Source: Collodictyon triciliatum
Taxonomy: Eukaryota
DNA length: 36,848 bases
Direction of reading: 5' to 3'
NCBI GenBank assembly: GCA_043381765.1
Contig: JBHJMP010000875.1
Span: 1 to 36,848 of the forward strand
Below the pieces are notes generated by a model, which searched no databases, had not been told where the DNA came from, and saw nothing but the letters and a program-made list of their open reading frames with translations. Position numbers and translations under genes: made by a program. Below are positions 14,014-28,123 of this stretch, piece after piece. Position 1 is the stretch's first letter. Each line of letters begins with the position of its first letter.

Positions 14014-17000
14014 ATGGGTATTATAACTGCTATGTGGACAGTCCTATGGATTTTTACCCTAGTTTTTCCAGCGAATGCAAACTTGGGAGGTATTATTGTT
14101 TCTCTTTTTCAAATAGATGAATTGATTAGATTGCTACCTTTCTATTTTTCGAAATCATTTCGCCAATTTCCCTTCATTACTCGCCTACTAAAGACGAGAA
14201 AAAAAGATTGGACTTACAGGTCCATGGACCCGATTACTCATCAAAGCACTGCTGTTGTATCAAGAGGAGATCTAATCTACTTTGTTGGAGACGAGTAATG
14301 CCACATTTTCTAATATTTCTCTCTATATTCGATTCAACTCACCTTTAGGAGATAATTATCTGTGCAATATAAATTTTTTTCTTTTTTACAACTTATTTTA
14401 AAAAAATACAGAGGGAATTCAGAGTATGAAAATACTATACCCATTTTCGAGCGAGTTTGGATTTTTAATACAAGTAAAGTTTTATATCACTTAAAATGCA
14501 ATTAATGCTTTTATGATTCAACTATACCTTGAGATTATTTATGAATAATTCTAAAATGGATTGCTTTTGGTTTGATTTTTGTAGACAATCTTACATGGAG
14601 TTGGAAACTAACCAAAGGCAATATTCCAGAGAGAAGAATGAATTACTGTTCCTCTATCATCCAAAATAAAGTAAATTTATCTTGAATTGAAAATCGTTCG
14701 GTTTTCGTTTCATTCAATCCAATATAAAGAGATTTTTTTCTTAATTGAATTGAAAACTACATTATTACTAATATGTACTAAACTTTGATATAAATATTAG
14801 TTTTACATTTTTGGAGGAGAGCTTTGGAGGGGATTCATTAATACAAATGAGCTCTTATCTTTGGATTTAGATACATTTGTGTGGGAAAATATTGAATACT
14901 TATCAACAAATGTATTCAAACCTGCAAACAAAATGAGTTGTGCAACTTACAATAAGGATATATACGTCTATGGAGGAGTAAATGGCTACATAGAATACAA
15001 CTTCTGGTCATTTAATATTGGTAATGCATCTATTTCAAATCAATTGGAAAGAATCACAATAATCTCCTTATAAGATTTTTTCCTTCCTTTATTCGATTGA
15101 AGAGAAGAAAGCGTTTTTAGTACATTTTTATAAGATGAAGATAAGGAAAGAGGAAATGTCTTTTCATATATACCGCAAGAAAACTCTATCGAAATTTCAT
15201 GAATTCTATATCTATTTAGAGACACGACTGTGGAGAGCCTATCATTCTGGAATACAAAGACTTGATCAAAATCAAGCTTTACTTAAGCTTACTCAAATGG
15301 ATATCTATCAAGATTCGCTTATTTTCTTTGGCGGAATGGATGCATACGACATTTTTCAACAAAAAATGTGGATGTACAATATAAGTCAGACCTTAATATT
15401 TTCACTCATTCTCTTCATATCATAACTATTAAATAAAATTAATAAATGAACACATTACATAATGTACATTTGAATCAGACAAGGACAAAAAAAATCTCGT
15501 TTTATTTTTACTACTTTAATATTTCCATTATAGTCTATCTAGTAAGATTTAAAAAGAAAAGAGAAAAAATAACATTTTTCTAATATCCATGGGATCCATG
15601 TTTTATGGTCTCTAATAGAAAATAATGATGATTGATTTTATAGCAAGAAGTGAATGGTATCCTCCAGTGGATATTTCTGTAAGTCCTGTCATTCATGGAG
15701 CTCCAATGACATACCAAGACAAATTATATGTCTTTGGTGGAGCTTATGACAGTGGAGGATCTAAACAAACAAACGACGTTGTTATTTACGACATAAGTAG
15801 ATTTATTAATAAACTCTCATATGAAACAGATATTTTAAATCATGAATGATCTAGTTAATTTCACCCTAACCCTAAAATTCCAAAGACTCCTACAAGAAGG
15901 ACTGATTTTTTCTTGATTTAACTGTTAAATAAATAGTTAACAAATCATCTGTGATAAAGAAAAGCCCGATACCTAGTTTTCTTGAGACTTATCCCATTAG
16001 AGCTCCATCACCAAGGATAAAATTGCCTTGCTCTAGAGTGAAAAATAAGATTTATTACTTTGGAGGTCAATCTCCTTCGACTAGGACAAACGATGTTTGG
16101 GTTTTTGACACTGGTAGCGAGATTATTTTTTTTGAAAACATCGGTTTTTTTTTATCGACTTCAATTTAAATTTCTTTTTTTTTTATTAAAAGACTAGTCA
16201 TTTTTTAAATATAAAATTGTAATCGTGTTCATAAATAAAATTAGATACCCTTACATGGTCGAATAACACTTATTCGATTTATCCAATTGGGAGAATCAAT
16301 CCCCATATTGCTTCTGTAGATGATAAGAAGGTTTATATGTTTGGAGGAGAAATGAAGCTATTCAATACACAGCCGATGAATGATTTATGGCAATATGATA
16401 CAAGTATATATCAATCAATTTATAATTACTTGTATGAAATAAAGTAAAAATTCATTATATTCTGAATTCTTCACATTTGAATTTCAGTTGTTTAAAATTT
16501 GTGCTATTTTTTTTAATAAAAATCATAGGTACCATGAAATGGGACAGACTTAAAGAGGAGATTATCTGTTTTCCTTCTCAAAGCGACTGTGCTCCTGCTG
16601 TTTTATACGGAGTATTCTTTTTTCTTTAACTATATTGAATATTTTATACATAACCCTATAAAATCCCTATCTTATCTTGATATGAGATACATATTAACAT
16701 GATTATGATTATTTTAAATCAGAGAATAAATTTGTATTAAAACTGGTGTTGATTCGCAGAATTTTGGAGGCTATGAACAGAACCTATATCTGATTGGCGG
16801 ATATTTTGTCTGGCCGCACGAACCTATTTTTAAAAAATTTTCTCTTTGTAATGAAAATTCTTACTTTAAAAAAAAAATCCCTATATCACAAATGAAATAA
16901 TCGTAACTTTGAGAAATAATTTTTTTTATAAAATCATCAACGGTACTGATATGAAATATTAATTTTTTGTTCCAACAATAGCGCAATTTGAATGGAGCAA

Positions 17001-26000: not shown

Positions 26001-28123
26001 AAGGAAAAAAAAAGACATTATATTGATTACATATATATAAAGAATAATAAACCGTCACGGATTGTTCTTTATTCTAATTGATAAATAAAATAAAACTTTC
26101 ATAAAAGGGAATTCATACCGGATCTCCGCTGTGTCGAGAAGATCCTGTGACAGGAAGAATGGATTATTATGGGCCTGTAGTAAATACAGCCGCAAGAATT
26201 GGTTCCTATCCAAAAGGAGGTCAAGTGGTAATCGGAGAGGCTGTTTATAATGTAAGGATACCATCTTTCATTTTTTATACCTTTGATTATTGCTTTAATA
26301 TATTCAAAATGCTTGATATTGAATCCAAAAACTTTAATTTTAGGCGATTAGCAATGATCTGAAGTCTCTGGGGAATATTTTGATTCGAGATATTGGTCAT
26401 CATGAAATGAAAGGATTGGATGCACCTGAGCATCTTTACGAAGTTTTTTTCCAACTCTCATTTTTACTTCATATAGATATATCGGATACAAAAAACACCT
26501 TCATCTCTCATATAATAAAGTTCTTTTTATGTTTGGTAATCTCAAACAAATATGTTAATATGGTATTTATTGTAAGATTACTTCTGAAATCTTGAGAGAC
26601 CGCGTCCAATATTTTTCGGCTGATTCAAATCAATGCATAAATTCCATGGTTGATTTTAAGCAAGACCCCGAAACAGATACATCAAATGAGGTTTCATTTA
26701 TTTATTTATGTATATGATCCTATACAAAATTTTAAAAAATGGCTCCTAGTAATACATAGTACCCCCAATTTTTTTTTACTTCTACTAACATATAAAATAA
26801 TTCCATCTCTCTAATTTTACAGGAGTCATTCCAGATCAAATTCGAAGACATCAACATAAGTACCAAAGAGCTTGGTTCTGGATCGTATGGTACAGTCTAC
26901 CTTGGTTCTATTGGGGAGAAGCAAGTTGCTGTAAAGAAATTCATCAGACAAAAGATGCCTGAAAAGCAGCTTTTTTCTTTGATGTCTGAAGTCCTGACAA
27001 TAAAGTAAATACCAAATAATCCATTCAATATCATTAAAATGATCTGAAGGCAAGTTCAAAAAAAACCAGAAAACGCCAAAAATAACAAAATCTTACAGTT
27101 TTTTTTTAAAAAAATATTCTTCACATGGAATAATAAGTAATTTTTTTTTAAAAAAAAGGGATTTGGTCCATGAAAATATAATTCGGTTCCATGGAGTGTG
27201 CTTGGAACAGCCAAATCTATGCTTGGTTTTAGAATATGCAGCTTATGGAAGTTTATCAAAATACTTACTAGACAAATCTGTAAGTCCTATATCTTAATAA
27301 ATTGCTTAATTCTTAGTTGATATCAAAATATTGTGAACAGACAATAAAAAAAATATTTCATATAGATCCCCTGAAATTTTTATTTCATATCACTCTTTTT
27401 TTTTCATATCCAGGTAATAATAAATTACGAAAAGCAAAAGACAATTCTAAGACACGTATCCAGCGCCATGGGATATTTACACTCCCGTGAGAGACCTATA
27501 TTCCATAGAGACTTAAAAAGCGATAATGTCTTGGTAATAACCCTTCTATTCTAATCTATTATATACACCCAGTACTCATTATTTATCATCGTTCACTTGT
27601 ATCATGAGAAACTTAACCCTAATAGATATTTCAAGACAGCCCCATCGTTGCTAAAATAGCAGATTTTGGATTAGCAAGAGTGAAAGCAAATAATCAGACC
27701 ATGACAAAATGTGGAACAAAAGCATGGATAGCTCCAGAGGTCTATACTCTATCATTTGAATATTTTAGAGAATATCGTATAAATATCGGAATACCAAACA
27801 AATGTAAATTAAGTTCTTAGATAAGCCTTATCCTAGACATTTATGAGTAAATATATCAAAAGGTTTTGAAAGGACTCAGATATGATGAAAAAGCGGATGT
27901 TTATAGCTTTTCGATTCTATCTTGGGAAGTGTGCGCAAGAAAGAAACCCTACGATAGTGTCGACCCATACAAGCTAGCCTTAGAAGTGATCAATGGGATA
28001 AGGCCAACTATCCCATCCGACATTCATCCGTCATTAACTAAATTAATCCAGGATTGCTGGAATGGAGAACCTGCCAAAAGACCCTCCTTCTACGAAATAG
28101 AAAAGGAACTGGAATCAATTTAA
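14014..28123 (+). CDS. Giant single-pass receptor: signal peptide - [12 Kelch - CUB - Cys-rich]x2 - TM - TKL-type kinase - class III cyclase - TKL-type kinase, about 53 exons
   Basis: Exons walked in frame through GT-AG introns from ATG 14014 (MGIITAMWTVLWIFTLVFPANA) to TAA 28121-28123, including a 16-nt microexon at 23545-23560. Kelch motifs Y(I/V/M)FGG...W. CUB-like SDGSRDFKYFPGTYCKWEI and EDGSGDGMYLTNSNCTWIL. TM IPVIGGTVGGLLVILMTVFFIY followed by RKR. Two full kinase motif sets and one cyclase motif set. Confidence 0.92.
14207..17818 (+). other. Kelch block 1 (about 12 repeats; probably two 6-bladed propellers)
   Basis: Successive motifs YFVGD, YIFGG, YVYGG, IFFGG, YVFGG, YYFGG, YMFGG, YLIGG, YIWGG, one degenerate repeat, MTLGG, YMFAG, most followed by a (Y/F)D/N...W signature. 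Confidence 0.8.
15077..15100 (-). mobile_element. Probable family B 3'-end remnant in an intron
   Basis: Reverse complement tcaatcgaataaaggaaggaaaaa resembles the family B terminus tttgaatcgaataaaggaaa(A)n. Only a 9-bp flanking repeat (ttataagat at 15068 and 15128). Confidence 0.4.
19753..19879. repeat. (AAT)n microsatellite in an intron
   Basis: About 42 perfect units. Confidence 0.99.
20927..20975 (+). mobile_element. Family C 49-bp A-tailed retro-insertion in an intron, with a perfect 17-bp TSD
   Basis: aagttgtacatatatga at 20910-20926 and 20976-20992. The insert ends AATAAA plus an A run and shares tgcacaaaattgaaag with 31267-31282. Confidence 0.85.
21316..21348 (+). mobile_element. Family B 33-bp A-tailed retro-insertion in an intron, with a 16-bp TSD (1 mismatch)
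   Basis: aagatactaa(t/g)gtagt at 21300-21315 and 21349-21364. The insert contains tttgaatcgaataaaggaaa, identical to 28652-28671. Confidence 0.8.
23845..25430 (+). other. Protein kinase domain 1 (TKL/Raf-like, Ser/Thr-type catalytic loop)
   Basis: LGSGGFGEVYKGKWRGTDVAIK, LRHPNIVLFM, HRDLKSPNLL, DFG, GTLLWMAPE, KSDVYSFG, CWSHNPKDRPSF. Confidence 0.95.
25520..26442 (+). other. Class III nucleotidyl cyclase domain with adenylyl-type specificity residues
   Basis: IFTDIQSSTSLW, GYEVKTEGDAFMIAF, RVRMGIHTG, MDYYGPVVNTAAR, GGQVVI, MKGL. Confidence 0.93.
26850..28120 (+). other. Protein kinase domain 2 (TKL/Raf-like)
   Basis: LGSGSYGTVYLG, VAVKK, HENIIRFHG, HRDLKSDNVL, DFGLAR, TKCGTKAWIAPE, KADVYSF, CWNGEPAKRPSF. 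Confidence 0.95.

Follow-up and report, generated by a model that had tools for sequence, protein, structure and literature searches.

A Kelch/CUB receptor with a predicted kinase–cyclase–kinase tail in the collodictyonid Collodictyon triciliatum

Contig JBHJMP010000875.1 of the freshwater, deep-branching protist Collodictyon triciliatum (assembly GCA_043381765.1), analysed over its whole stretch of 36,848 nucleotides (nt; hereafter the window), carries at 14014–28123 one real, very large surface-receptor gene, which joins a Kelch/CUB ectodomain through a transmembrane (TM) helix to a cassette of kinase, cyclase and kinase (Table 1). The gene lies in AT-rich, intron-rich eukaryotic DNA. Our curated model has 53 exons, runs from the ATG at 14014 to the TAA at 28121–28123 and encodes 2462 residues (aa) with no internal stops; its introns are GT–AG in 52 of 52 cases and 72–286 nt long (median 123.5), and GC content is 36.6% in exons versus 22.4% in introns. 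Exons were picked by hand after a rough automatic first pass, whose own 62-exon model was dropped for its spurious micro-introns; small boundary errors remain possible, and intron 1 also permits in-frame read-through. The acceptors of many introns (14090–27862) follow an A-rich tract instead of a pyrimidine-rich one, and intron 21 holds a long AAT microsatellite (19750–19880). Besides the signal peptide there is one clear TM helix (a third hydrophobic stretch falls within kinase 1), and the product has no second signal peptide. Pfam searches by exon, covering 41 of the 53, gave Kelch-family matches in 12, kinase in 9 and cyclase in 3, with weak EGF and ephrin/TNFR-like scores. The domain list of an initial annotation of this DNA, with a single TM helix and three catalytic domains of intact motifs, is thereby borne out.

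Table 1. Features of the receptor gene, with positions in the window
Feature	Position	Strand	Basis
Whole gene, 53 exons, 2462-aa type I membrane protein	14014..28123	+	Curated model; collinear with Diphylleia transcript proteins
Exon 1, signal peptide (aa 1 to ~23)	14014..14089	+	Hydropathy 1.83 over aa 1–19; homologues begin with a like hydrophobic leader
Kelch block A, 12 blades, exons 2–14, aa 27–650	14207..17818	+	Model, Pfam, alignment
CUB domain 1, aa 653–770, exons 15–17	17914..18480	+	Fold shown on homologous Diphylleia segment
Cys-rich TNFR/ephrin-receptor-like module, aa 771–813	18621..18955	+	Pfam PF23091 E 0.0025, PF07699 E 0.0035, both under cut-off
Kelch block B, 12 blades, exons 20–32, aa ~835–1475	19176..22719	+	Internal duplicate of block A
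CUB domain 2, aa 1476–1600	22830..23294	+	Profile match to CUB1, probability 97.4
EGF-like Cys module, aa 1602–1628, including a 16-nt micro-exon	23386..23560	+	Pfam EGF_3 E 0.0099, under cut-off
Single TM helix, aa 1642–1660, then basic stretch	23712..23768	+	Hydropathy 2.43
Kinase 1, TKL (Raf/CTR1/MLK-like), aa 1686–1937: GSGGFG, VAIK, HRDLKSPN, DFG, WMAPE intact	23844..25422	+	Motifs, Pfam, profile
Short Ser/Thr-rich linker, kinase 1 to cyclase, aa 1941–1969; candidate phosphorylation site (putative function)	25423..25521	+	Sequence
Class III cyclase, adenylyl type, aa 1971–2160: FTD1979, K2018TEGD2022, D2097YYG, N2104, R2108, K2149	25522..26579	+	Motifs, Pfam
Kinase 2, TKL, aa 2208–2460: GSGSYG, VAVK, HRDLKSDN, DFG, WIAPE intact	26853..28114	+	Motifs, Pfam, profile

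The locus had been read as one continuous spliced gene, and transcripts of Diphylleia rotans confirm this. We searched 1.84 billion representatives in full with HMMER, taking as query the exon that runs from the last part of kinase 1 into the cyclase, and obtained 366 matches; among the best 150, which were examined, cyclase plus kinase occurred in 42 and Kelch/CUB in 4, all four being Diphylleia rotans Trinity transcripts whose clusters contain full-length isoforms of 2463–2505 aa. An ectodomain search, word-seeded and of limited sensitivity (8000 candidates scored; 6 matches, comprising 4 Diphylleia proteins and 2 Kelch proteins with no kinase or cyclase families listed), added three more of 2450–2528 aa. 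The seven full-length proteins, spanning this same length range, have the same build (EukProt EP00002: P0153, P0156, P0159, P0163, P0166, P0167 and P0168), and four are collinear with our model in every domain (605–615 of 627 positions in Kelch block A; 253–255 of 255 in kinase 1). They match the Collodictyon protein in architecture and length and interleave with this genome's paralogues in the tree, but differ in sequence (20–32% identity in the Kelch blocks and 42–59% in the kinases for the four compared); all are unannotated database entries belonging to no described family. In P0154, an isoform of P0153, the sequence gives way to a novel tail immediately ahead of the TM helix, approximately where intron 36 lies, and ends there; it represents a secreted isoform of the ectodomain or else an unspliced read.

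Because these transcript proteins share the full-length build, four of them aligning end to end, we take the fusion to be real. Transcripts splitting the locus had been named as what would overturn the one-gene reading; in Diphylleia rotans, single open reading frame (ORF) transcripts carry the full architecture. These transcripts, the introns of at most 286 nt, the single signal peptide and the same domain order in many paralogues make it scarcely credible that the model has joined two or more adjacent genes (one for a secreted Kelch/CUB protein, another for the kinase and cyclase), a reading already largely refuted, although the model is hand-curated and P0154 stops just short of the TM helix. 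No RNA run was listed for the locus, which in itself speaks for neither side.

The predicted ectodomain (~1600 aa, 15 N-glycosylation sequons) is a tandem duplication, whose halves align over 740 profile columns (E 6e-110), each unit comprising 12 Kelch blades, a CUB domain and a Cys module. Of the 24 blades, 22 are GG-type motifs in the model and 2 are degenerate blades recognized from the alignment; spacing is 46–64 aa. CUB assignment was settled by structure because Pfam CUB scores stayed under the cut-off: the profile has zero matches among the exons scanned here and, on the matching segment of the Diphylleia homologues, is covered in full in 2 of 7 members (best E 0.0028). The CUB1 alignment found no match among Protein Data Bank (PDB) sequences. 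An AlphaFold model of the Diphylleia CUB1-equivalent segment (pLDDT, the per-residue model confidence, 91) retrieves CUB-containing chains as its top 21 structural matches (Z 8.4–12.2, root mean square deviation (rmsd) 2.0–3.1 Å over ~100 residues), the best having Z 12.2 and rmsd 2.2–2.4 Å over 102–103 residues, and Foldseek agrees. It resembles the CUB domains of Kremen, GPR126, neuropilin, C1s, TSG-6 and cubilin at Z 11–12, the first unrelated rows lying at Z ≤6.5. The CUB fold is thus found for CUB1 through the Diphylleia segment and for CUB2 through its profile match to CUB1 alone (probability 97.4, E 1e-11); Atlas scores of 0.79 and 0.82 (the latter for CUB clusters, on a homologue's CUB2) serve as leads only. 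Seven Cys are invariant across seven homologues in CUB1 and its Cys module. The roughly 24 Kelch repeats, two CUB-like domains and Cys-rich modules proposed at the outset are therefore present, as 12 + 12 blades with CUB1 established by homologue fold and CUB2 by profile.

In the catalytic tail, both kinases keep the Gly loop, VAxK, HRDLKxxN, DFG and APE motifs. CTR1 heads the matches of a profile built on nine homologues; ZAK/MLK, TNNI3K and B-Raf make up most of the rest, along with a few tyrosine kinases. The HRDLKxxN loop and GTxxWxAPE segment are marks of TKL kinases, unlike the tyrosine-kinase loop; best matches and motifs together place both domains in TKL, and a tyrosine-kinase type was rejected on the catalytic loop. 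Class III adenylyl cyclases use two metal-binding Asp, an adenine-selecting Lys and Asp, a transition-state Asn and Arg and a phosphate-binding Lys, and all seven of these positions (D1979, K2018, D2022, D2097, N2104, R2108 and K2149) are present here, as expected of that class. The K/D pair denotes specificity for ATP rather than GTP; guanylyl specificity was rejected with K/D in place of E/C. The closest solved structures are the trypanosome receptor adenylate cyclases GRESAG4.1/4.3, which align at the K and D positions.

Far from being a lone oddity, the gene belongs to a large family. Searching the genome with the cyclase exon gave 31 matches, 29 of them full family members, and the count of paralogues is a lower bound (at least 29). 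At 18 of 21 other loci examined, the cassette has CUB and/or Kelch exons upstream of it on its own strand, the inner CUB1 being among them at 11; selecting loci by their similarity to this cyclase exon biases the share towards this subfamily. The remaining 3 have little or no DNA upstream of the cassette. Exon boundaries recur: the paralogue C993 has AG/GT at the same boundaries in 36 of 37 placed exons (identity 92% in exons versus 68% in introns), and C1053 shares boundaries in 23 of 24 exons (73% versus 44%). One scaffold (C360:10001-41241) holds two family genes in tandem, and at C993:21590-27507 a further Kelch–CUB1 block lies on the opposite strand past an 8.7-kb gap; it is either another gene or a piece of scaffold placed in the wrong orientation.

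Divergence is uneven along the protein. Against C993, the ratio of nonsynonymous to synonymous change (dN/dS) is 0.034 for kinase 1, 0.035 for the cyclase, 0.070 for kinase 2 and 0.128 for Kelch block B; against C1053, the cyclase is 91% identical (dN/dS 0.029) and Kelch block B 61%. The ectodomain diverges faster than the tail, at a dN/dS (0.08–0.29) far below 1. Judged from these comparisons, the cyclase is strongly conserved and under strong purifying selection (dN/dS ~0.03). The gene falls in a recent six-member clade (SH-aLRT, a likelihood-ratio branch support, 100) whose cyclase motifs are intact; this, with the 91% versus 61% identity to C1053, argues for real cyclic AMP (cAMP) synthesis by this copy.

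Elsewhere in the family the cyclase fares differently. Of the 29 loci, 14 have a fully intact cyclase, 4 one that is intact as far as it can be read and 11 an altered one; all motifs are kept in one of the seven full-length Diphylleia proteins (P0156) and are degenerate in the other six. The catalytic Asp is retained by kinase 1 at 15 of 18 and by kinase 2 at 18 of 19 readable loci; of these same 20 loci, 10 have a fully intact cyclase. As the kinases are mostly intact while the cyclase is often altered, we infer that phosphorylation would be the constant output family-wide and cAMP optional, retained in this copy and its recent duplicates. The same pattern, a degenerate or altered cyclase kept in place beside intact kinases, would suit a receptor that is in effect a tandem kinase, with the cyclase acting as a dimerization or ATP-binding scaffold and making little or no cAMP. 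For the gene studied here this is unlikely: its seven catalytic positions are all intact and identical in the closest paralogues, and its cyclase is as constrained as kinase 1 (dN/dS 0.035 and 0.029).

The host is a collodictyonid (CRuMs), outside Amoebozoa. Both Diphyllatea-specific primers (PMC6052632; this and the papers below are cited from the portions of text available) match the genome's 18S ribosomal RNA (rRNA) with 0 mismatches, 1625 nt apart versus ~1624 expected, and shuffles go unmatched; CRuMs lie near the base of Amorphea (PMC10492846). A second, much weaker small-subunit rRNA match (C834:42374-43813; 588 bits, 1440 nt) is possibly organellar or bacterial. A tree of the cassette unites 18 rows of this genome with 9 of Diphylleia in a single group (SH-aLRT 98) and pairs some of them across species, for example C892 with P0163 (100), which makes the receptor family older than the split of the host from Diphylleia rotans. 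One Diphylleia protein, P0027, carries the kinase–cyclase–kinase tail under a Cu/Zn superoxide dismutase (SOD)-fold ectodomain and is nested in the Kelch family beside P0156 and C1058 (SH-aLRT 100), an ectodomain swap.

The tail itself had been recognized as one known from Acanthamoeba and giant viruses, correctly: it is that of the ‘cyclase kinases’. Acanthamoeba castellanii has 67 cyclases that combine an ectodomain and one TM helix with a cyclase set between two Ser/Thr kinases, an arrangement shared with giant viruses and termed unique for a cellular organism (PMC4053784); under the name cyclase kinases, 66 are counted in Acanthamoeba and 43 in Physarum polycephalum (PMC4758236), and none in Protostelium aurantium (PMC5804921). 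These three accounts, in the text available, describe the family only from some Amoebozoa and their giant viruses. Our protein has each defining part on one chain, namely ectodomain, single TM helix and class III cyclase between two Ser/Thr-type kinases. Among 30 database homologues looked up are proteins of Mastigamoeba, Pelomyxa, Thecamoeba, Pandoravirus and the ancyromonad Fabomonas; the ectodomains scanned in other homologues are solute-binding (PBP/ANF), 5'-nucleotidase, laminin-G, peroxidase/DOMON or SOD-fold, and the family displays swapped ectodomains on a fixed signalling tail. The two proteins of Fabomonas tropica (P0165 and P0175) are cyclase kinases whose cyclase motifs are intact and whose ectodomains are of the solute-binding or ANF-receptor kind; they lie apart from each other in the tree. 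None of 23 viral ORFs matched Kelch or CUB, a viral-contig scan with one 48-aa exon confirmed 0 of 30 candidates, and word-seeded protein searches with two single exons, weak evidence in themselves, found nothing.

Kinase phylogenies against amoebozoan and giant-virus sequences, proposed as a check of the initial annotation, gave a clear division: a single branch (SH-aLRT 98) separates all 46 kinase-1 from all 46 kinase-2 domains of collodictyonids, ancyromonad, amoebozoans and viruses. Our trees are quick, unrooted searches whose rows include no labelled Acanthamoeba or Physarum sequence; the cassette tree left out 13 of 71 rows (3 gappy rows of this genome, 10 viral), and the kinase tree took in 8 of this genome's 20 paralogues and excluded 13 viral rows. 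Common descent with amoebozoan and giant-virus members appears in the kinase tree of cassette domains alone, without outside kinases. Because each kinase forms one group across lineages, the result fits a cassette that arose once, with ancient vertical descent as the favoured but unproven route. Recent acquisition from a giant virus was rejected, viral copies grouping apart from the collodictyonid clade (on SH-aLRT support, without an approximately unbiased (AU) test).

The initial annotation supposed that this combination may be undescribed, and our literature searches, thin on subscription papers, found no paper joining a Kelch/CUB ectodomain to the kinase–cyclase–kinase cassette or placing the cassette in CRuMs. 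The word ‘kelch’ is absent from the main texts of PMC4053784, PMC4758236 and PMC5804921, the ectodomain figures being in supplements (Fig. S3.3.1 of PMC4053784 and Fig. S16 of PMC4758236), and the words cyclase, kinase, kelch and receptor appear nowhere in PMC11603278. The Kelch/CUB ectodomain and collodictyonid host thus appear to be new and the inner kinase–cyclase–kinase design already known, which makes the receptor an ectodomain variant of a known, little-studied family. We found this ectodomain on this tail in collodictyonids only; Acanthamoeba and Physarum members were compared by main text, and Kelch may therefore occur there. The Diphyllatea placement, the ancyromonad occurrence, the single-origin signal and the pattern of active versus dead cyclases are further additions.

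The expanded collodictyonid family and the two Fabomonas copies move the origin deeper and argue against a recent viral source. A broader account is possible but doubtful: the kinase–cyclase–kinase receptor would be ancient, predating the CRuMs/Amorphea split and perhaps shared with ancyromonads, rather than an amoebozoan or viral invention; collodictyonids would have expanded a repertoire for recognizing prey or other cells with an independently assembled attractin-like ectodomain, and cyclase-active members would pair with cyclase-dead paralogues that tune cAMP. Such pairing, if true, would be a unicellular parallel of mammalian C1/C2 asymmetry and receptor guanylyl cyclase regulation, and natural active/dead pairs offer material for learning how flanking kinases control a class III cyclase.

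Elsewhere in the window, a divergently oriented, intron-rich leucine-rich-repeat (LRR) receptor gene occupies 6630–11946 on the − strand, with an LRRNT domain, about ten one-repeat LRR exons at a near-regular 120–130-nt period, a long LRR exon (LRR_8, E 3e-13), a stalk rich in Cys and, towards the C terminus, several hydrophobic segments, resembling a multi-pass receptor of the LRR type. Inverted copies (80–94% alike) of a GC-richer interspersed repeat of ~1.7 kb lie at ~4560–6240 (−) and 28700–30400 (+), with shorter pieces at 12875–13054 and 31496–31587. This repeat, probably a mobile element, was scored at 40 places of 759 candidates in the genome (~83–88% identity); two of its ORFs had no Pfam match.

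We think it probable that the gene encodes a collodictyonid cyclase kinase receptor with a lineage-specific ectodomain, in which ligand-paired chains would give both cAMP and kinase output. Kinase 1 occupies the place that the regulatory kinase-homology domain takes in animal receptor guanylyl cyclases, a model for gating. With that position, and the Ser/Thr-rich linker that follows, kinase 1 would probably gate the adjoining cyclase through the linker, kinase 2 being the likelier effector that phosphorylates downstream targets. At the surface, the glycosylated Kelch/CUB ectodomain would bind a large ligand rather than a small solute, either a protein or a glycan, carried by prey or by another cell, and binding would pair or re-orient two chains. 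Two cyclase domains would then close as a dimer, head to tail, making cAMP, as the dimer brings the Raf-like kinases together for trans-phosphorylation. Head-to-tail dimers are the active form of class III cyclases, and the receptor adenylate cyclases of trypanosomes are thought to be switched through their ectodomains (PMC6027212). The single-chain receptor with cAMP and phosphorylation output first envisaged is accordingly kept in part: motifs for both activities are intact in this copy, but two chains would be needed, and the dual output does not extend across the family, given the many altered cyclases described above.

Several points weigh against this scheme. The gene model is known from genomic DNA, homologous transcripts and paralogues; each 12-blade Kelch block is read as two six-bladed propellers, a number deduced from blade count; the ligand class is a guess from domain type; and the cyclase, by its motifs, is dead in most Diphylleia homologues, such that cAMP output is not what holds the family together. 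Published accounts of cyclase kinases, in the text available, report no enzyme activity, ligand, localization or dimer.

The faster divergence of the ectodomain, its size, its CUB and EGF-like modules and its sequons would also fit a receptor mainly for adhesion or phagocytic prey capture, signalling after clustering with no specific ligand needed. In MEGF8, CUB/EGF modules are tied to adhesion and Kelch to sugar binding (PMC5792066), and collodictyonids, from reference titles, feed on algae and cyanobacteria. Against this, ectodomain dN/dS reveals no diversifying selection at the domain level; the idea overlaps with the ligand-paired scheme, from which it differs in the trigger alone, and as a separate explanation we rate it very unlikely.

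Comparison with known systems places the receptor beside several families. It resembles attractin and MEGF8 in its single-pass build, Kelch propellers and CUB and EGF modules, with Pfam Beta-prop_ATRN-LZTR1 matches, and differs in having an 800-aa catalytic tail, in the order Kelch then CUB, twice, and in higher scores for KLHDC2-type Kelch. Attractin and MEGF8 have PSI and laminin-EGF repeats and a CUB domain N-terminal to the Kelch block; the Kelch-bearing homologues scanned had no PSI, lectin or laminin-EGF Pfam matches, and none of the 6 matches of the word-seeded ectodomain search was named attractin or MEGF8. The attractin/MEGF8-like ectodomain first proposed stands as to shared domain types but not as to order and copy number, and membership of that family was rejected on the catalytic tail, Kelch preceding CUB and the missing PSI and laminin-EGF; MEGF8 and attractin have a short non-catalytic tail (PMC5792066). 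Trypanosome receptor-type adenylate cyclases (GRESAG4.1/4.3; PDB codes 1fx2 and 1fx4) share the succession of ectodomain, TM helix and a single, dimer-activated cyclase, but have no flanking kinases and a Venus-flytrap ectodomain. Animal receptor guanylyl cyclases have the same order of ectodomain, TM helix, kinase-like domain and class III cyclase, and differ in their pseudokinase followed by a coiled coil, their GTP-using cyclase and their lack of a second kinase. Closest are the cyclase kinases, which share the ectodomain, one TM helix, flanked class III cyclase and large paralogue expansion, and from which this receptor is set apart by its 24 Kelch blades, two CUB domains and Cys modules and by its collodictyonid host.

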